Assembly (NCBI RefSeq): GCF_025526975.1
Contig: NW_026515680.1
Span: 186,001-250,000, forward strand
From: Fimicolochytrium jonesii
Taxonomy: Eukaryota
DNA: 64,000 nucleotides
Direction: 5' to 3'
Below the pieces are notes generated by a model. It did not search any database. It had not been told where the DNA came from and saw nothing but the letters and a program-made list of their open reading frames with translations. The position numbers and the translations under genes are program-made. Below, one piece after another: positions 8,390 through 56,763 of this stretch. Positions within the stretch are counted from its first letter, which is position 1; each line of letters begins with the position of its first letter.

Positions 8390-11137
8390 TCACAACCCAG
8401 CCAACCCCGCCTCCCCCGCCAACTCCCCACACAACCCCTCCAACAACGCCCTCAGCTCCCTGACCCGTCCCACCACGCCCTTCAGCGCCGCCAGCTCGCC
8501 GCGCATGTGCCGCACCATCTCATTGCACTCGCCCAGCAGGCCCGCCAGCTCCCTGCACCGGCGTTCCAGGAACTCGTTCCGCGCCGCCAACGCACCGTTC
8601 TGGGCTTGCAGCGTTGGCATGTCGACCACCGGCGGGTGCGATGTCGCATTGTTCGGCGGGTTGTTGGGCGGGCGCGTGAAGGAGGGGTTGGAGACGGTGG
8701 AGATGGTTGTGGTGGTCGTGCCGCCGGTGGTGTTGCGGGAGGGTTGGTCGGGGTTGATGGAGGCGAGGAGCGTTGATTCGGTTGTTTCTGTTGCGGCTGT
8801 TGTTATGGATGAGCCCGAGGTGTTGCGCGGGGGTGGGAGGGTCGGTGGTAGGGGCTGGTGGGGTTCTGTTGTTGTTGTTGTTGTTGTTGTTGATGTGGGG
8901 GCTGGGGCGGTGGGAGGCGCAGGGAAGGATGAATCCCCACTGCTCCCGCTGCTCGTCTCCTGGGGCACCGCCGGCACCTCTTTCCTCCCTTCACTCGGCG
9001 CCCCGGCAGTCGAGCTCGCTCCAGACTCCGGCCGCGCCGACTCGACAAAATCGTCAAAGAACGGATTCGCCGGCGCTACAACGTCCATCTGATCATCCAC
9101 GACGTTCAGTTCCGCGGCGAGGTGGGGCCGCCGTAAAGGTATAGTCGTTCGTAACGGGAAGGGGAAGGGGTCGGAATTAGATCGTGGGGCTGGTTGTGGT
9201 GTTTCAGAGGCGGTGAAAGGGAACGAGCCGGCGCCGTCGGAGCCGGGGAGGCGGGAGGGGGAGGTTTCGGTGCGCGTGGGTGAGGGTGGGTGGATGGTGT
9301 TGGATGTGAGGGAGCGGTGACGTTGTGCCGGTGATGGTGGTATTCGTGCTGAATGGCGGTCGTCATCATCGGCGTTAACAGCCGCCGGCTGTTTCCCCTT
9401 CTCCCGCGCCGGATCCGCTTGGTCCCACTCCATCCCCGCCGCCGTATCCTCATGCTGCTGTTCTTCATCCCCATCCGCACTCCCTTCACTCCTCACCGAC
9501 CCCAGTCGCTGCACCGCACCCCCACCATCCGTCCTCCCCTCCCCACCACCCCCACCCTCCTTCCTCCCCTCCAACCCCTCCACAACCTGATTAAACACCA
9601 TCGCGGCAAGCCCCTGCGGCCCCGACTCCCTCCCCGACTCCCTCCCCACCTCCTCACTCCCACTCTCACTCTCCTCCAAACTCGCCGTCCGGGGCGTCAC
9701 CCGAATATGGGTGTCCGCATACCCATCATGCCGCCCTCCGCCCTCCTCGTCGGCCGACTCCCGGGTAGAGGACCGACGTCTGCTCACCCGGCGTCTCGGC
9801 GATCCGTTGGAGGAGGACAAGAGTTCACGAACACGCATCGCACTCGAATGTTCCAGACTCCCCCTCCTAGCCCGTTTCGTCGCGCGTCCACCACCACCAC
9901 CACCACCACCACTCTCATCGCTCTGCGCGCTGGATCTCCTAGACTCCCTGGTGCGCGGGTTGGGGAAGGGCGATGCGCCTGAATGAGAAGGATGGGAGTC
10001 GGGGAGGGTGATGAAGAAGCTGTTTGGGATGCCGAGGAGGTAGTCGAAGTAGGCGTCGATGTGGTGCCAGGTGAGCCAGTCTTTGATGCGGACGGCAATG
10101 TTGGTGCCGCGGCGGTGGAAGCCGAGGCTGCGGGCTATGTCGGACCATGATCGGAGCTGCAAATCATCGTTTAAAGGATATCAGCACGGATCTCCCTTTT
10201 AACGTTGGGCTCCAAATGAAGCACATTGTACCTTATCAACCCCGCCATAAAACTTCACCAGCTCAAACAAATCAAACGGCATAAACGAGCGTTTCTGGTT
10301 CCTCGGCGGTTGCATGAACTTGACGACATGCTCCTCGACGCTGCATTTGTCCGTGGGCTCGTTGTGGAAGGCTTTGATGAAGGCTTCGTAGGTCGGGCGG
10401 ATCGTTTCGCGAGTTATGGTGATTTGGCGGCCGGGTTGGAATTCGCGAAGGAGGTGGGCTGGAGGCCTCGGCTCTCCCACCGTATCGTGCCCCCCAGCCC
10501 TCCGCTCAATCGGATCATACGGCGGCTGCCTCTCCCCACCAGAACCAACTCTCTGCCCACTCCCATCCGAAAGATAATCATAAGGGAATGCTGGGCGAGG
10601 ATAATCCGGATATGCTTGCTGATGATGTTGGTGGTGATGTTGCGGTTGTTGACGATGGGGATAATGTTGTTGGGTAGTCGGTCCTGGTTGTTGTTGTTGT
10701 GGGTGATGCGATGGGTAACTGTATCCTCCGGAAGAGTATTGAGCGGGTGGGGGGAGGTGGTGCGGGTGTTGCGGCTGTTGTGTTAGTTGTGGTGGGTATG
10801 AAGATCCCTGCATCGGCTGCACATGCACACCCCCCTGCTGTGGAGGGTAAGAGGGCGAATACTGTTGTTGCGACTGCTGTTGATACTGGGGATGCCCCTG
10901 CTGTCCCTGCTGCTGTTGCTGCTGGTGCATGGTAGTATAGTGCGCGAAAACTTGGTGAGGATGGGTCACCTGGTCGGCGCGGGCAGCGTGTGTGGGTGAA
11001 AGTCGTTGATACTGCTGTGGGGGCAGCAAGTGGTGGTGGGGCTGGGAAGGAGGGTGGTGTGCGACGACAGGTGGTGCTGGCGGATAGGGTGCTCCAGTTG
11101 TGGGGGCGATGAGGGGTCTATCGCTCGGGGATGCCAT
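8390..11137 (-). CDS. ARID/BRIGHT-domain protein with Q/H/P-rich N-terminus and C-terminal coiled coil
   Basis: PFDLFELVKFYGGVDK|..RSWSDIARSLGF...IKDWL..YFDY fits the ARID pattern across a short intron (about 10160-10230). Flanks are low complexity with a heptad-like C-terminus. Confidence 0.75.
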
Positions 11138-18894: not shown

Positions 18895-19709
18895 ATCTAG
18901 AGAACAGGCCCGTAATAGTCCGTTCTCCCGGTGACTATATATTTTCTACATCTCTGTATCCAAAAACGAAAAACCTTTTGGTCCCAACCCCATTGTAACC
19001 TCCAACAAAGTGAGCCGCCGCGTTCGTCGCTGCACGGACCACCTCCGCACTGGTTGGGAGTCTTGGGACATGGGTGTCCTTGCTCGTTTAGGAAGTGGGT
19101 TCATGTCCCCAACAACGACCGCAATATGCACGGAAGTTGTCGAAATATGTCGCCTTGCTCGTACCGCCGGTTCTGGCAATTGTCCCACACTCCGGGTCGC
19201 TGGTCAGGCGCCCGCTGATTGTCATGTCATGGGAGCACCTGCTCGCCTCGCTTCTTCTCTCGTCGAGTGCACGCTCCTTCCCGCTGACCGTGAGAAGAGG
19301 CGAGGCGAGCAGGTGCTCCCATGATCTAGAGAACAGGCCCGTGATAGTCCGTGCTCCCAGTGACTATATATTTTCTACATCTCTGTATCCAAAAACGAAA
19401 AATGTTTTGGTCCCAACCCCGTTGTAACCTCCAATAAAGTGAGCCGCCGAGTTCGTCGCTGCACGGACCATCTCCGCACTGGTTGGGACACGGGTGTCCT
19501 TGCTCGTTTAGGAAGTGGGTTCATGTCCCCAACAACGACCGCAATATGCACGGAAGTTGTCGAAATATGTCGCCTTGCTAGTACCGCCGGTTCTGGCGAT
19601 TGTCCCGCACTCCGGGTCGCTGGTCAGGCGCCGGCTGATTGTCATGTCATGGGAGCACCTGCTCGCCTCGCTTCTTCTCACGGCCAGCGGGAAGGAGCGT
19701 GCACTCGAC
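18895..19709. repeat. About 360-bp direct duplication with an inverted 63-bp segment at the junction
   Basis: 18895-19259 matches 19324-19679 (offset 429 then 420, one 9-bp indel). 19262-19324 is the reverse complement of 19647-19709 with two mismatches. Confidence 0.95.
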
Positions 19710-28350: not shown

Positions 28351-29736
28351 ACTTGGGATATTTAATCCTGCTCTCTGCGGTTTTGACAGTTTGCACGTTT
28401 CTGACATTCTTTCCCTCACAGGGAAAGAGCTTTATCAGCTCAAGACGTTACGGGTGCGTAGACCTGAAGCTGAACATGCCAGGCCAACAAAATCTCCATC
28501 CAGAACGGGTATGGGCAATGGGCTATTTGACTGGGTTCTTTTGCAACGAGATGGTTTGGTTAGGTTTGCTTTCGATTTGATTTCCTTACAGCTCCGGTGG
28601 ACGCCGTCTCTTGATTTGTGTGATGCTCAAAAATTGCATGTAGCAAACTGCAATATTGCGAGGTGTTGGCTGTATAGAGAGCGACGATTAGGATTTGCCT
28701 TCAGATTATTGAACGAAGGCGCACTCTGCATCGCTATAACCGGAGAGAGCTAAGAAGCCACTTATGACGGTGGCATCTGTGAGGCAGCGAATAACCTCCG
28801 GTGGACCAGCCGGCCCAGAAAGCTCAGCAAGCGCATCCATTGGCCCATTGCATAAGTGGAAAGTAAGGCCACTACCCTTCCCTTATTTAGGCGTAGCGAT
28901 CATGTGTCCCGAGGGTTTGGGTTGACAGTGCTGCACGGTATAGTAATAGTGGGAGTAATGATGAGCGGCGTAGTGCTGTACTGTACTGTACGTATAGTAG
29001 TAGGTGTCTGCCTACTCACTCACGGGAGTTCAATATCTCCCGCATTATAGAAGCTCCAGGCACGAAATAAGCGTACTTTTTCCCACTGTACGGAAACACA
29101 TTGCACATACCATTGCATACTATCCACACCGCAAAGTCTATCCACATACACAATTAGAGCAAACCCCGCTTTGCAGCTACTGGCCCGGAGATTTACGTCC
29201 CTCAAGTAAGCTCCCACTCGCCCGCTGACTCGGGGCACCGCCTGCTTTTGCCAGCACACTATATAGAGACCCTGGGGTGTCCGCCACCCTTCTCGTTTCT
29301 TTCTCTTCACAACGAGACAACCCGGTAAAGACCCTCTGAATAGAGGCTCCATATTCATAGCACCAGAGCAGAACCGATACAGAGCAATTGAACCAAACAT
29401 ACAATCGAATTCGCCGAGTACACCGCAACAACACCGTACTATTTTACAGCAGAATAAGTGTCAGCACCAGCAGCGAGTAGACTCAGTCAGCAGCAGACGC
29501 TAGCAACAGTGTTGAAAGGGCGCTTTTCGTCTAGGTGAGTTTCTTTGGTCTGGAGGCGCTTTGGTGTGTTTGGTATGAGCGTGGTCGACCAAAGCGGCGG
29601 ACAGCACAGACGGCACCTGGCCCCGGAGCAAAGCTCTGTCCAGCTCCTTTTGGGCAGCATCAAAGAGGGAGATGCCCGTGATCTTGTCCGCATGGTGTAG
29701 CACTCGGAGCGCTTTGAAGATGCCCTCCTCGCAGTC

Positions 29737-29955
29737 GCCTTAGGCGGCTGCGACGGACCAGCGCACCGGAGGCCGCTGTGAAATAGAACATACACATCCG
29801 AAGAACTGCGTTCCTAGGTGCCTTTAACGGCTACGTTGGAACATCGTCACGAAAGCCGTTGTGAAATGGAACATGAACATTTGAAGAACGTTGCCTTAGG
29901 CGGCTGCACCGGATTATCGTCCCGAAAGACGTTGTGAAATGGGACTTGCACATTT
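29737..29955. repeat. Three degenerate tandem copies of an about 63-bp unit (spacing 83 and 73 bp)
   Basis: GCCTTAGGCGGCTGC...GYTGTGAAATRGRAC starts at 29737, 29820 and 29893. Confidence 0.75.
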
Positions 29956-30014
29956 GTAGAACCCGTCTGCTAACCACAGCGATTTTCGTATGGCGCATCC
30001 ATAGAAGGAACGAA

Positions 30015-32507: not shown

Positions 32508-34443
32508 CTACGCCTCCCTTGGGACAACCTCCCCCACCCCATTACAAACCACCCACGGCCGATACGCCTGACTCCTCACATCCTCGGGCCTGCTCACCCC
32601 GCTCATCACCAAGACGGGGTCGATCTCGGCGTACACACCGCTGAGAATATCGGTGTCCATGCGGTCGCCAATGATGCATGTTTCGTCTTTGGAGGTTCCG
32701 AGGATGGTGGCGGCGTAGCGGAGCATGAGGGAGGTGGGTTTGCCGAGGTAGAATGCCTAGGGGGGTAGGAGAGATGGAGTTGGTGGAGTTAGGGAGGGCA
32801 TACGGCGTTGAGGGATGCGGTTATGAAGCACACAGATTTCGCCACGGAACCTTACGGCCGGAAGCCAACTCGACCGCGGCACAAAACGCCCCAGTAGCCG
32901 GGGCGATCCCGCCCTCCGTCGGCCCATTGACGTCCGGGTTGGTCCCGATCAGTTTGGCGCCCTTGTACACCAGGTTGACCGCTTTCGAGATCTTGTCGAA
33001 GGTCTGGCTGCTGCCTTCGCCTATCACGACGTAATCCGGGTTCTGCAAAGATTCACATGTCAGGAACATCATACCCGTGCACGATATATCCCCCCAATCA
33101 CACCACTATGATACCACAACGTACCGTCTCATTCATACTGAACCCAACCTCATACAACGCATATATAAGCCCCGGCTCGCCAACAACATAAACCGTCCCG
33201 CCATTCGGTTTCTGGCTCTGCAGGAATTTGGCGGTCGCGATGGCCGAGGTGTAGAAATGGTCTTCGGTGACGGAGAGGCCGAGGCGGGCGAGCTTGAAGG
33301 AGAGCTCGCGAGGGGTTGGGGCGGAGTTGTTTGTCTGAGTAGGAGGGGTTAGCGGCGGGTGGCTGGGAGAGGGGGGAAAGCAAAGGGGGACTTACGAGGA
33401 AGAGGAACTTTTTGTCTTCTTTTTTGAGCCAGTGGATGAAATCTTTGACGCCGGGAAGGAGGACGTTGCCGTGGTAGATTACGCCGTCCATGTCGATGAT
33501 AAAGCCCTGCAATGCGAAGGGATGGATCAAGCGACGCGTAAATGACGGTGAAGTAATGGATGAAGGATTAGCAACGGAGGGCTCAGACATTGTTCCTCCA
33601 GGCCCGGTTGATGGTTGAACTGAAGCGATGGAACGCGATGGTTGAACGATCCCTGCTCGAGCGGCTGGTGACGGACCTCGTTCCGTCCGCCAAAGATCAA
33701 CGCTCGCCGGAGCTCCTTAAGAACTGCAGTGGGCATATTGTTGCACCTTTGGCGCAACGGAACTCGCTTCGCTCGCGAAGGCGGTCGCCCCTGGTCGCCC
33801 TTGCCACCGCTAGGGCACCGAGAAGAGAACCCAATTCAAGCAGCCCTGCGCCCGCTCATGCTCAAGCCTCGTTCCGCCGTCCCCCATAACTTCCCACCCC
33901 AACCCTCGCACACACCTTCTTGTTCTGGATGACCTTCAACCTAGCCTGGTACTCGTCGGCGGACAGTTCCGACAACTGACATAACTCCTTCGCAGTGAAG
34001 TGCTGGAGGGACTTTGCAGTGAGGTCTGAGAGGGCGGTGGAGCTGAGGTGGGCGAGGTCTGCCATTGTTCCTGTGAATTGTTTCTTATGTGTGCGTGAGT
34101 GTTGTGATGAAGACGATGGCGAGCGATGGCGTTTGGAGGGCTGATGGCCGGTTTGAGGTGTGCTGCTGCTCGAAGCCAAGCCCAAGCCCAAGTGTAACGC
34201 GTTTGGGTCGCCCTCCGAGCCGTCCCAGCCGGCGTGTTTGTTGTTCAGGTGGCCGCGGAGCGTCGTGTTGCCCGTGCCCACGCTGTAAAGCCCTCCGCAC
34301 CACCGGCACTCTCGCTTCTCCGGGTTGCCCGCTGCCACCGGAAAGTTGAGCTCCATTAGGCGTTTGATTCGGCCGTCGTGGACTCGGGGTGGTCGGCGGA
34401 CCGCTTCTTGCGTCGTCGTGGTGGCATTGCTGGGGTCCGCCAT
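32508..34443 (-). CDS. BED zinc finger fused to a NagD-like HAD-IIA phosphatase (5 exons)
   Basis: Exon 1 (34443-33916) has CRWC...GNTTLRGHLNNKH. Phase-0 intron 33915-33507 joins IQNKK|GFIIDMDGVIY. Then FL|TNNS, TNPD, GKP and IIGDRMDTDI.G (HAD motifs I-IV). Confidence 0.8.
33741..33851 (-). repeat. Dispersed element copy in BED-NagD intron 1
   Basis: Minus strand GCGCAGGGCTGCTTG...GACCAGGGGCGACCGCCTTCGCGAGCGAAGCGAGTTCCGTTGCGCCAAAGGTGCAA shares blocks with the RAD6, BolA and ERG7 introns. Confidence 0.8.
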
Positions 34444-34899
34444 TGGGAAGCTGTCCGGAGGTGTGCTTTCGGTGAAGATATGCCGTTCCTGACGTGGTGG
34501 CAAACAGCGAAGCACCTCACCTTGTTTGGCTGTGCAAGATGCGTTTAAGAGGTACTGTATAAGTGGAAGGGCGGTTTCGCCGTGAGCTACGGGGGTTAGC
34601 AAAAGGAGTGCTCGGCTGCTCGATCGAGTTGAGCACAGGAGCAAGCCTGCTTGAGAGGGCCGAGAAAGCCGAGCAGAGAAGTCGTCCGCCCGCGCGTGTT
34701 CTCCAGTTCGCTGAGGCTTGTTGCTCCAGTTTCCAAGTGAGGTGTGAAACCTTCACAGATGGTATCGCAAACCTCATCCGAAGCCGTTCCCATTCACCTT
34801 CCACACAAAACGGCATAGGCTACGAGCAACCGTCTCCCGCCCTTCGTCTATGCGCCTTCACTTAACTCGCTACATCGGCTGATAGTCGTGCGCGTTGGC

Positions 34900-37050
34900 T
34901 CCATGACCAGTCCGTCTCCGCAAGAAACCGCCCTTAAGTATCCCATCCAGATCAGCGCGACCGAAGGGGGTTCTTACACCTCCACCTGCCAAACAAAGCG
35001 TCACCTGATGGAAATATCAGAGAAGTGCGTGGAACCAAGAGACGGACGATATAGACTCAGGCGAAAGCTCCTCCAGGAAGAGCGAAAGCAGATACTGGAA
35101 AAGTACTGGTGTAGCTGATAGTGCAGTTGCTATGACCGGCTCCGGCCGAATAGCAGGAACTCTTGAGTGACGCCAACGGAAGCTCGAACCATTTTAATCT
35201 AAGACCGACGGCTGATAGCGGTGCCCCGTCCATTATCGTTGCGGACTCGGACTACTTTCCGCAGACGCCAGGACGGTGGGAAGCTTTAATTTCACCGGCG
35301 ATACGGCGCCTGGAAGTAGGGAATGCTCAGCTCAGATGACGGCGATCGGTTTATACTCAGCGGCCAGGGTTATCCACTACAATCGTTTACATACAAGTGA
35401 ACCCGATAGCGATATGGAACACCATACCGAACACCTACCGAGCTTCACACTTTGGACGCCCTTCGCTGGGTAGGGTATTACAGATCGGGCGATGGGGAAG
35501 GGTTAACTAAACCGCCACTGAGAATTGCACAAATAAGACGGCGCATCGTTTTCGGTACAGACGGAACCATCAGCGATGCATCGATTGATTATATTCGCTT
35601 CATGCTGGAGGGTATGCTTTCAGAACATATGCAGTTTGACCTCAGGGTGGGTGGAGTATCGCCCAACGGAAGTAAAGTGCGGAGCTGTACGTGTCTCTGG
35701 ACATGGCAACCGACTCGTGTACAACGCGCTGGAAGCGGGATGTAACTCGTCGTCGGGAGCGTCGGCTGTTTCTCCAGACGCTGAACAACTTTTTATCCAA
35801 CCGGAGCTTCGTGCGTGGACGCCTCGCTCAACGACCAAGCATCTATACGCAAGGCACGCTGAGAGAGAAGGGCCCCGGGCGTACAACGCCTCGCACGTGA
35901 AATGTTGGCCTGATTTTCGTCGTTGTGGGCGCGGATCGGTGTTACCATTGGCAAAAGAATGAGAGCAGGAGGAGCTACCTGAATACGTCTATTAGGGCAA
36001 CCCATTCCAGACGATTCAGCGGTACGGAAGATGGAGTTCAGATGCGTTTGAGAGGTACAGTACATTCGGTCGCACCCCGAGTCCTTAGTGGAGCTGATGT
36101 GAAGGAACTGGCTCGACACCCCGCCCTATTTTTTTCGAGCGGTGACGTACAACATCAGCACCAAGCACGTCGGCCCCACCAACAACGAGGTGTACGACTG
36201 GCTGTTGAGAAACACACGCAGGGGGGTGTGTACGCCTGTTTGATGTGCGCGTTGCCGGCCGTTGTCTTCCTCCCAGCCGCTAAGTTGCCCGTAAAAGTGG
36301 AGGATAACCCCATTGCGGACCTGGTTCTCGTGGCAAATACACTTTCGGACATACAGCGCACTCTTACGCACGTTGACTCATTCATACAACGCCTTGAAAT
36401 GATCTTGGAGGAAGGCGGAGTGTTACTGAACATCGCCAGTCGCCAAAGCAAACCAAAATGAGGGTTTGACCCTCACCAGGCTTTCAGTTGAACAGAACGT
36501 TAGCTCGAAACCAACATTGGCTACCATTGAGACGTCGTCTCCATCAACGCTGTTTCTCAATTCCCAATCTCGAGAGCAGTGGTTGAAGACTTTTTAGCCG
36601 CCAGATCTGATGACCATTCGAAGCAACGCCATCCGACGGGTTCGTCATCCCGCACACCAGAGCGGCCACTACAACGAAAATGTGATCATCACCCCGATCT
36701 TGGGCCGTTCAACAATCCAGTCGGCAATCGGTTGCGTTGACCAAAGTTCCAGACATACTGAATGCCGGGCGTCTCGCAGTTTACTGGGTAAGGGGGCAAC
36801 TGAGCGTATGAGGCTTCGCTCAAATCTCCGACCGTGGTGGTGCTTACGCCCATGGATGTGCGATCCGAGTCTGCCGCCCCGCAGTTGGAGGTCTGAGCGG
36901 GCGGAAGAAGAAGCTGTTGGTTTTTTCTATTCCGGTAATGACTGCGTCTTGGAATTCCATATGGCTTGGGTAACAGTAATGTGAACCGCATGGAGGTCAA
37001 TGGTTCTTGTACAGCAGTGTACGTGGAACATCATGGCACCATTCTAGCTA
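34900..37050 (+). pseudogene. Possible decayed coding sequence (Crinkler/REase- or kinase-like remnants)
   Basis: Short broken ORFs with HVKCWPDF, TEDGVQMRL and LLGKGAT.. fragments and many stops or frameshifts. The family assignment is only a resemblance. Confidence 0.25.
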
Positions 37051-40576: not shown

Positions 40577-41545
40577 ATGACCACCCTCCGCCTCCCCTCT
40601 CTCTTGCGCCACGTCGCCTTCCCGCGCACACCCGTCATTTCCAGGTCTTTTGCGACGAAACCCGCAACAATGGCAGGTCCAGTCTACTCGAGCATCGAAA
40701 CCAAGCTGACGGAGGCACTACAGCCGACTGTTCTGGAGATTGTAGACGAGAGCTATAAGCATGCCGGTCATGCTGCTATGAAGGGTTTGAAGCCAGTTGA
40801 AACGCACTTCAGGTGGGAATAGCGGAGTGAACGAGCAGGGAATTGGTTCGGTCTGGGAGACCGAGCGTAGGGGCGGTCGACCAGAGGGAACGCCTTCGCG
40901 AGCGAAGCGAGCGACTGCGACGAGCGAGGCGAGGCGCAGGGATGCTTGAGGCAGGCGAGCCATGAGCCGAGCCCTGGTTCGGCGGTCTGGAAAACCGAGC
41001 GTCAATGAGGTCGACCAGAGCGAACGCCTACGCGAGCGAAGCGGCGCCGCAGGCGCAATACCTGTGAGTAATAGCGAACGGTCGTTCTTAAGCGATGGCG
41101 GGCCCTTATGTGAGCGAAAGCGAACGATCGTTTCTTACTGGTTTTTAGTGATCATCGGTGGGTTGATGATTGAATGTCGATGGTTGGATGGGTTGATGTG
41201 TGGCTTATGGTTGATAGGTCGATGGGTGGTGGATGGATGACGGTTGCTGGGTCGACGGGTTGGTCGATGGTCGGTGGGTTGATGGTCAATGGTTGACTGT
41301 TAACGCATGTTTCGTCCCGTGGGATATAGGGTAACGGCCGTTTCGTCAAAGTTCGAAGGCAAGCGTCTCGTACAAAGGCATCAGGTACAACTAGCGACGC
41401 TCTCTTTTTCATCAAAGTATTGTCAACTGATACAGCTATATATGTCGATAAACAGCTAGTGTACGAAATCTTGGGACAGGAGCTGAAGGAGGGTTTGCAT
41501 GCGCTGTCGTTGTCGACAAAGACGCCTGAGGAGTATCAGAAGTGA
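40577..41545 (+). CDS. BolA-family protein (BolA1/Bol1-like) with probable mitochondrial presequence; exons 40577-40812, 41330-41384, about 41456-41545
   Basis: IETKLTEALQPTVLEIVDESYKHAGH...ETHFR|VTAVSSKFEGKRLVQRHQ|LVYEILGQELKEGLHALSLSTKTPEE. Confidence 0.93.
40870..41130 (+). repeat. Two tandem copies of the dispersed GA-hairpin element in BolA intron 1 (40813-41329)
   Basis: GGTCGACCAGAG[G/C]GAACGCCT[T/A]CGCGAGCGAAGC at about 40875 and 41009. Hairpins GTGAGT-AATA-GCGAAC and GTGAGC-GAAA-GCGAAC. Followed by about 150 bp of degenerate GGTYGAT repeats. Confidence 0.85.
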
Positions 41546-56089: not shown

Positions 56090-56340
56090 ATGGAGGAAGC
56101 ACTGGTGACATTCGGCAAACACAAAGGGAAGCCGGTTTCCGAGCTCGTCACGGACACCAAATACCTCGGCTGGCTCACGCAACAGTCCTGGTTTGCGCGA
56201 AATCCGTTGTATAACGTTATAGTCAAGCACCAATATGGCGAGAAGGACGAGCCGACGCCAGAGCACAACAAGCTGCAAAATCGATTTTTAGACAGAGGTT
56301 TTCTTCGTCGTTTCGTTTCAAGAGCATATCCCATTTACTC
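56090..56340 (+). pseudogene. Intronless fragment with TFGKHKG (DUF3820/ExoX-C-like) and TPEHNKLQ motifs; possibly of viral or bacterial origin
   Basis: MEEALVTFGKHKGKPVSELVTDTKYLGWLTQQSWF...TPEHNKLQNRFLD. The ORF continues to 56665 but loses protein-like character after about residue 85. Confidence 0.5.
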
Positions 56341-56763
56341 GCCTGATTCTTTGAGCGCTGATGTGTCCTGTTCGGGATGTTTACGGTATAAACGAGCGGT
56401 CCTTCACCGGCCGTTTCATGCAGCGTTTCAACAATGCAAGCAAACACAGTGGCACCGGGCTGCCAGAAGCCAGCGGAGCACAAGCGGTGCATCTCCTTTT
56501 GGAGCAGTCATGGTACTGCAGAGCATTTGGTCAGGAGGAGAAGCAAAACGCTGCAGCATCACCGACTGGCTTGCCGGTGCTCCCCGGAGGCAGCCGCGGC
56601 TAGCCATGATATTCCAATTCGTATGTACAGGAGCCGGTCACATCGCAGCAGCATCCCGTCCATGATTCCCCTATTTACAGCTATATACCTCTTCCTGATG
56701 ACCGAATGATTCACCGCCATGTGTTTTCAAATTCGAGACAATCGTGGCAGGACATCTAAGCGT

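Follow-up and report, generated by a model that had tools for sequence, protein, structure and literature searches.

Gene structure at the locus

The window, that is, the whole stretch of 64,000 nucleotides from Fimicolochytrium jonesii that was analysed, carries on its minus strand a gene of five exons and four phase-0 GT-AG introns (409, 61, 82 and 94 nt for introns 1 to 4), which yield one open frame of 429 codons in the spliced model. The features referred to below are as follows, in window coordinates.

34515..34520, minus strand: candidate 5' splice donor upstream of Met1 (a consensus match only)
34155..34467, minus strand: direct repeat of 10 nt that flanks the Met1-finger block, one unit at 34467-34458 and the other at 34164-34155 (spacing 303 nt)
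33916..34443, minus strand: exon 1 (Met1-Lys176), holding the tail, BED-like finger, putatively disordered linker and phosphatase start (spliced model equal to the NCBI protein)
34228..34371, minus strand: BED-like CCHH zinc finger (aa 25-72; C46, C49, H65, H70), from weak but concordant tests
34066..34227, minus strand: stop-free Ser/His/basic linker (aa 73-126) with KRHR at 34134-34123; its codon score is neutral and not discriminating
34063..34065, minus strand: Met127, an in-frame ATG downstream of Met1 whose context is strong (A at -3, G at +4), giving a 303-aa enzyme
33916..34008, minus strand: chytrid-conserved N-terminal helices of the phosphatase (aa 146-176) from the alignment; the structural model is confident from about aa 150
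33507..33915, minus strand: intron 1, 409 nt, phase 0, within the phosphatase, with one dispersed-repeat copy at about 33801-33741
33396..33506, minus strand: exon 2, HAD motif I (D181-x-D183)
33125..33334, minus strand: exon 3, HAD motif II (LTNNS) and start of the cap region
32851..33042, minus strand: exon 4, cap region
32508..32756, minus strand: exon 5, HAD motifs III (GKP) and IV (GDRMDTD) and the stop codon
3440-3630 (plus), 33801-33741 (minus) and 40849-41043 (plus): dispersed GA-rich repeat, up to 36 nt at 92% identity

The spliced model (429 aa) is letter-identical to the NCBI/RefSeq "HAD-like domain-containing protein" of F. jonesii, a soil chytrid, and a search with exon 1 as query returned one protein, that same record. 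This identity shows that a gene predictor arrived at the same exons, which is distinct from expression, and the start of the model at Met1 is an annotation choice. The five-exon gene itself is real. The first-pass annotation of this DNA had proposed a phase-0 GT-AG intron at 33915-33507 and a single gene in which a BED-like finger stands in frame ahead of an intact NagD-like HAD-IIA phosphatase; the intron is borne out, giving with three more introns an open frame equal to the NCBI model, and the single-gene arrangement is supported at the DNA level. Across the roughly 2 kb upstream (34820-37000) no ORF of at least 60 aa has a Pfam match, and the next gene in that direction is Dcc1, on the opposite strand from about 37.7 kb.

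The phosphatase, its start codons and its relatives

Exon 1 ends in HFTAKELCQLSELSADEYQARLKVIQNKK, a segment conserved in chytrid orthologues, where the alignment shows it to be continuous with motif I, and bacterial relatives likewise have a basic KKGF-type lead-in. The intron at 33915-33507 is supported because exon 1 terminates in this conserved helix, and the first-pass suggestion that the junction of IQNKK with GFIIDMDGVIY forms a natural lead-in to motif I stands, the joined residues being equal to the unbroken sequence of chytrid and bacterial orthologues. Intron 1 is consequently interior to the phosphatase and is not the connection between finger and enzyme, which meet unspliced inside exon 1, ahead of Met127 (34065). 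Two earlier statements, that intron 1 unites two unrelated ORFs and that the phosphatase has no convincing start of its own, are therefore wrong, because about 30 conserved phosphatase residues precede the intron in exon 1, as does Met127 with A at -3 and G at +4. Nor is there support for a further suggestion, that a finger exon was captured by way of intron 1, as the intron lies within the conserved N-terminus of the enzyme, and finger and Met127 stand in one and the same exon.

The context of Met1 is weaker (C at -3), and a purine occupies -3 in 7 of 8 other starts, which were chosen by eye. Read from Met127 the enzyme has 303 aa, a size typical of its orthologues, and its catalytic Asp falls at position 55, compared with a median of 43.5 in chytrid-type orthologues with a readable motif (n=28). 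The stretch before Met127 is C/A-rich, G-poor and leader-like. If the donor at 34520 were used with an acceptor at 34451, 34332 or 34071, the finger would be kept, cut or skipped, depending on the acceptor. Between the finger and Met127 lie no stop and just two poor GT sites, and an in-frame intron excising the linker was rejected, as no usable donor-acceptor pair was found. A branch site at 34599 was also rejected as evidence of a leader intron, its CTAAC motif not being enriched in the window (44 occurrences, 46 expected).

The enzyme passes the HAD-IIA model TIGR01460 (136.2 bits, cut-off 100.15), and motifs I-IV, aligned to NagD, are intact (D181MD, LT214NNS, GK353P, GD378RMDTD). It misses the equivalog cut-offs of PRK10444 (227.8 against 368 bits) and TIGR01457 (213.7 against 247.65 bits), as do its stand-alone orthologues, and on these sequence scores we class it as NagD-like, not NagD proper; because the scores fall under the equivalog cut-offs, we assign no specific substrate. 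The AlphaFold model has high confidence beyond about residue 150 and shows aa 1-143 as a low-confidence loose tail; its best structural match is E. coli NagD (PDB 2c4n; rmsd 1.7 A over 254 columns, 41% identity). Motifs I-IV are shared with E. coli NagD and with the bacterial HAD-IIA nucleotide/sugar phosphatases YutF and AraL, relative to which the chytrid protein adds an N-terminal extension of 176 residues and the fungal TNNSAPTP motif. Since UMP, GMP, AMP, CMP and, weakly, G6P are described as NagD substrates in PMC5080769, a nucleoside-monophosphate or sugar-phosphate phosphatase activity is likely by analogy.

Stand-alone NagD-like proteins of 291-310 aa, which lack the finger, occur in chytrids, Blastocladiomycota, Zoopagomycota and Mucoromycota (e.g. 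Spizellomyces punctatus and Powellomyces hirtus); they are 76-77% identical over the enzyme and have the N-terminal helices in common with it. We examined 132 NagD-like proteins (the best 120 of 7998 scoring, plus 12 cluster members), and the finger is present in one, namely the protein described here. None of the 131 others, among them two Powellomyces and two Spizellomyces models, carries it, and the combination of zf-BED with a phosphatase that the first-pass annotation would seek in orthologues is absent from these 131. The 119 other proteins in the best 120 of 7998 cover 53-69% of the query, and that set includes one F. jonesii protein. Two models exist for Powellomyces hirtus, one reaching 18 residues further upstream than the other. 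When the whole protein was submitted to the Atlas, plain HAD clusters alone were among the matches, and a literature search found no description of a zf-BED plus Hydrolase_6 architecture and, for NagD with chytrid, unrelated titles only. The finger pattern was also found in none of six metagenome loci, of which three are fungal-like by sequence (none of them chytrid-like) and three bacterial-like.

In a quick, unrooted tree built from 120 rows the protein groups with Powellomyces and Spizellomyces (SH-aLRT 98). A single branch (SH-aLRT 99) has all 57 rows labelled eukaryotic on the same side, eight of these being metagenome proteins that took the label from their sequence. No named Dikarya protein occurs in the best 120 of 7998, and the early-fungal family is about 60% identical to bacterial proteins. 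An early bacterial transfer of the NagD-like family is possible on this unrooted, one-sided tree.

The N-terminal finger and its coding signal

The first-pass annotation had placed a BED finger at the N-terminus. Its ligands are indeed present and all four are intact (C46-x2-C49-x15-H65-x4-H70), aa 46-70 being the sole match to the pattern in six frames of the window; membership of the family is less clear, with Pfam zf-BED (PF02892) giving 17.2 bits on exon 1 (E 0.005) and 15.5 bits on the whole protein, under the curated 20.6, over profile positions 17-43 of 44 with positions 1-16 omitted. A Trp is usual at the N-terminal aromatic site of BED fingers, whereas the corresponding LMELNF has Phe and no Trp. 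A phmmer search of 1.84 billion representatives gave one match, a crustacean protein of seven BED repeats, and a profile built from these repeats, whose ranking is for that reason not independent of the phmmer match, placed the finger ORF first of 1314 window ORF pieces (E 0.0008, next 0.2). In the ESM Atlas the finger lies at 0.93 to zf-BED clusters. A single-sequence model of it (pLDDT 67) is a hairpin plus helix, for which Foldseek ranked the BED finger of ZBED2 first (E 0.4) and ZBED1 fourth, without significance, and a wide structural search (VIA) gave Z 2.8 and rmsd 4.9 over 56 aligned residues, tied with non-BED fingers. These tests, weak but concordant, suggest a diverged BED-like finger that is not formally a member of PF02892. 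By features and predicted structure its nearest neighbours are the fingers of ZBED1 (2ct5) and ZBED2 (2djr), with which it shares the C-x2-C...H-x4-H ligands and, in its low-confidence model, a hairpin plus helix; in contrast to BED proteins it scores below the cut-off, has no Trp at the N-terminal aromatic site and is accompanied by no transposase or dimerisation domain.

PMC1702500 describes BED as a DNA-binding domain common to transposases and lineage-specific factors. BED fingers can bind proteins too, and ZBED3 occurs in a protein complex among the Foldseek rows of the finger model. The top structural row for the chytrid finger (TM 0.65 over 53 residues) is a Zoopagomycota carbon-nitrogen hydrolase cluster in the ESM Atlas, where zf-BED is present in 21% of the 84 members. 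As in the chytrid gene, a finger there sits on a metabolic hydrolase of an early-diverging fungus, although the enzyme is unrelated; finger-plus-enzyme proteins therefore exist in another early fungal line. Further relatives of the finger were sought among the 2206 and 27 candidates of longer-length searches, both weak tests, in which the protein itself alone was recovered; viral contigs held none and PDB sequences no real match.

Third-position GC is host-like both from Met1 through the finger (66 of 82 codons) and from Met127 to Lys176 (41/50), against 55/103 in the open codons upstream of Met1. A Markov score climbs from non-coding to coding level near Met1, and a synonymous-codon score is concordant; both codon models were trained on 13-14 ORF stretches chosen by eye. 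Among 1834 stop-free control pieces, some of them probably unlisted exons, about 6% reach the score of aa 1-82. Outside the training genes, 3591 of 15152 stretches of 56 codons are stop-free, and a link that is both open and in frame would arise by chance in about 8% of cases (0.24 x 1/3). The linker shows no codon bias (third-position GC 23/44). Its treatment as non-coding DNA by this measure (p 0.0003, with the border set after the Markov score had been viewed) did not survive its control, in which equally low values were seen in 33 of 61 disorder-like coding windows; the linker is either a disordered coding segment or a former 5' leader. On balance we lean towards the long form being made at all.

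A consensus for nuclear localisation signals is K-K/R-x-K/R. Of the two basic patches in which the first-pass annotation saw such signals, KRHR (aa 104-107) fits this consensus and HKKQ does not; a motif of the KRHR type occurs in 183 of 4036 stop-free pieces (about 5%).

Readings of the gene and mobile elements in the window

A transposon source for the finger had been put forward earlier, and it is from the domain family only that we infer such an origin, since neither a transposase remnant nor a flanking inverted repeat with target duplication turned up in the DNA around it. Pfam transposase families are absent from the 25 ORFs of at least 60 aa between 34520 and 38046 (the sole match being Dcc1), no DDE transposase or dimerisation domain of the kind expected for a hAT or Mutator element or a domesticated transposase was found in the protein itself, no inverted termini with a flanking target duplication were found in 35900-34061, and no second copy of the finger was found within the window. 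As there is no nearby transposase and no close relative of the finger, a kept domain fits better than a fresh transposon piece. The 10-nt direct repeat, which was spotted after the fact, is a possible insertion footprint with no inverted termini; repeats of at least 10 nt are shared at 337 of 11528 places of the same geometry (2.9%). PMC5751038 reports very few DNA transposons for chytrids.

The reading that we favour, to which we give about an even chance, is a species-limited gene with two starts, from which Met127 would yield the enzyme and Met1 a BED-tagged, predicted nuclear long form. Beyond the open frame, every step of this mechanism is one that we infer. A share of the ribosomes would begin at the weaker Met1 (C at -3) while the others scan to the stronger Met127 (A at -3) or, alternatively, two transcription starts could yield both forms. 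Translation from Met127 would give an ordinary enzyme of ancestral type, and translation from Met1 would add the finger, the linker and the nuclear signal. In the long form KRHR and the finger may keep the phosphatase, a predicted Mg-dependent enzyme acting on nucleoside monophosphates or sugar phosphates, at chromatin, and there it could trim or sense local nucleotide pools. Judged from the sequences compared, the finger appears to have been gained in the Fimicolochytrium line after its split from Powellomyces.

A real possibility, which we nevertheless hold below an even chance, is that the 303-aa enzyme from Met127 is the only product, and that the finger, as a relic fragment of a transposon or of a duplicated gene, lies untranslated in the promoter, the leader or a leader intron and was absorbed when the annotation was extended to the furthest in-frame ATG. 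The finger's absence from the 131 others of the 132 NagD-like proteins compared is consistent with such a relic, as are the strong context of Met127 after its C/A-rich, G-poor stretch, the neutral codon use of the linker, the direct repeat that flanks the Met1-finger block, and the donor at 34520, which with the acceptor at 34071 would excise the finger; the 18-residue difference between the two P. hirtus models moreover shows that the choice of start hinges on annotation. However, a relic would need to have acquired by chance the right strand and frame, freedom from stops, an ATG of its own where codon bias begins and four intact ligands, and it has no sister copy in the window or the protein searches and no transposase remnant nearby.

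The long protein might also be made with the finger as a neutral passenger or protein-binding tag, a tolerated tail with no role at chromatin. The restriction of the finger to a single species, its divergence from the Pfam model and the low-confidence loose tail modelled for aa 1-143 would all suit a passenger, yet four ligands and a nuclear-signal-like motif have been retained together, and we consider this improbable. Far less probable still are two separate genes, with the stop at 33862 used by the finger and the phosphatase starting on its own in or after intron 1. An in-frame ATG does occur at 33590, within intron 1, but the conserved N-terminal helices of the enzyme sit in exon 1, and the interval from finger to Met127 has no stop and only its two poor GT sites.

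If the long form of the two-start gene is made, it would represent a young, single-step placement of a DNA-binding module before an intact housekeeping enzyme whose old start codon was kept, and a nucleotide phosphatase would join the hint from the Atlas cluster of recurring BED-plus-enzyme fusions acting as one-component metabolite sensors. Should it not be made, the locus is an over-extended annotation of an ordinary enzyme. More speculatively, and in our view doubtfully, the gene could exemplify a recurring, undescribed eukaryotic design in which small metabolic enzymes come to carry an N-terminal BED finger and a nuclear signal before their own start codon; with equal reserve, one gene might in this design switch its product from cytosolic enzyme to chromatin-bound regulator and back, the regulator sensing metabolites, here nucleoside monophosphates.

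The first-pass annotation had also placed a GA-hairpin element in the joining intron. The repeat is real, but it does not lie at the join of finger and enzyme and its fold is no better than that of shuffled sequences (-41.0 for the intron 1 stretch vs -37.4 +/- 4.1). Its 12-nt GA-rich core has five exact copies and one variant in the window, two or three of them in tandem at each of 3.5 kb and 40.9 kb and one in intron 1, and it is likely to be a small non-autonomous mobile element. Elsewhere in the window, a unit of about 420 nt is duplicated in tandem at 18895-19709; its copies are 95-96% identical, contain a near-perfect inverted repeat of 36 nt and are MITE-like. At 29736-29962 (plus strand) a 71-nt unit lies in three diverged copies upstream of a Ser/Arg-rich ORF. 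A short ORF at 56090-56665 (plus strand) has a weak N-terminal match to an ExoX-like C-terminal region (E 0.002), after which protein-like character is lost, and is possibly a viral-type relic. Finally, 8390-11137 on the minus strand contains a chytrid Abp2-like gene, two exons of which match Pfam Abp2 (ARS-binding protein 2) with E-values of 8e-8 and 1e-3.
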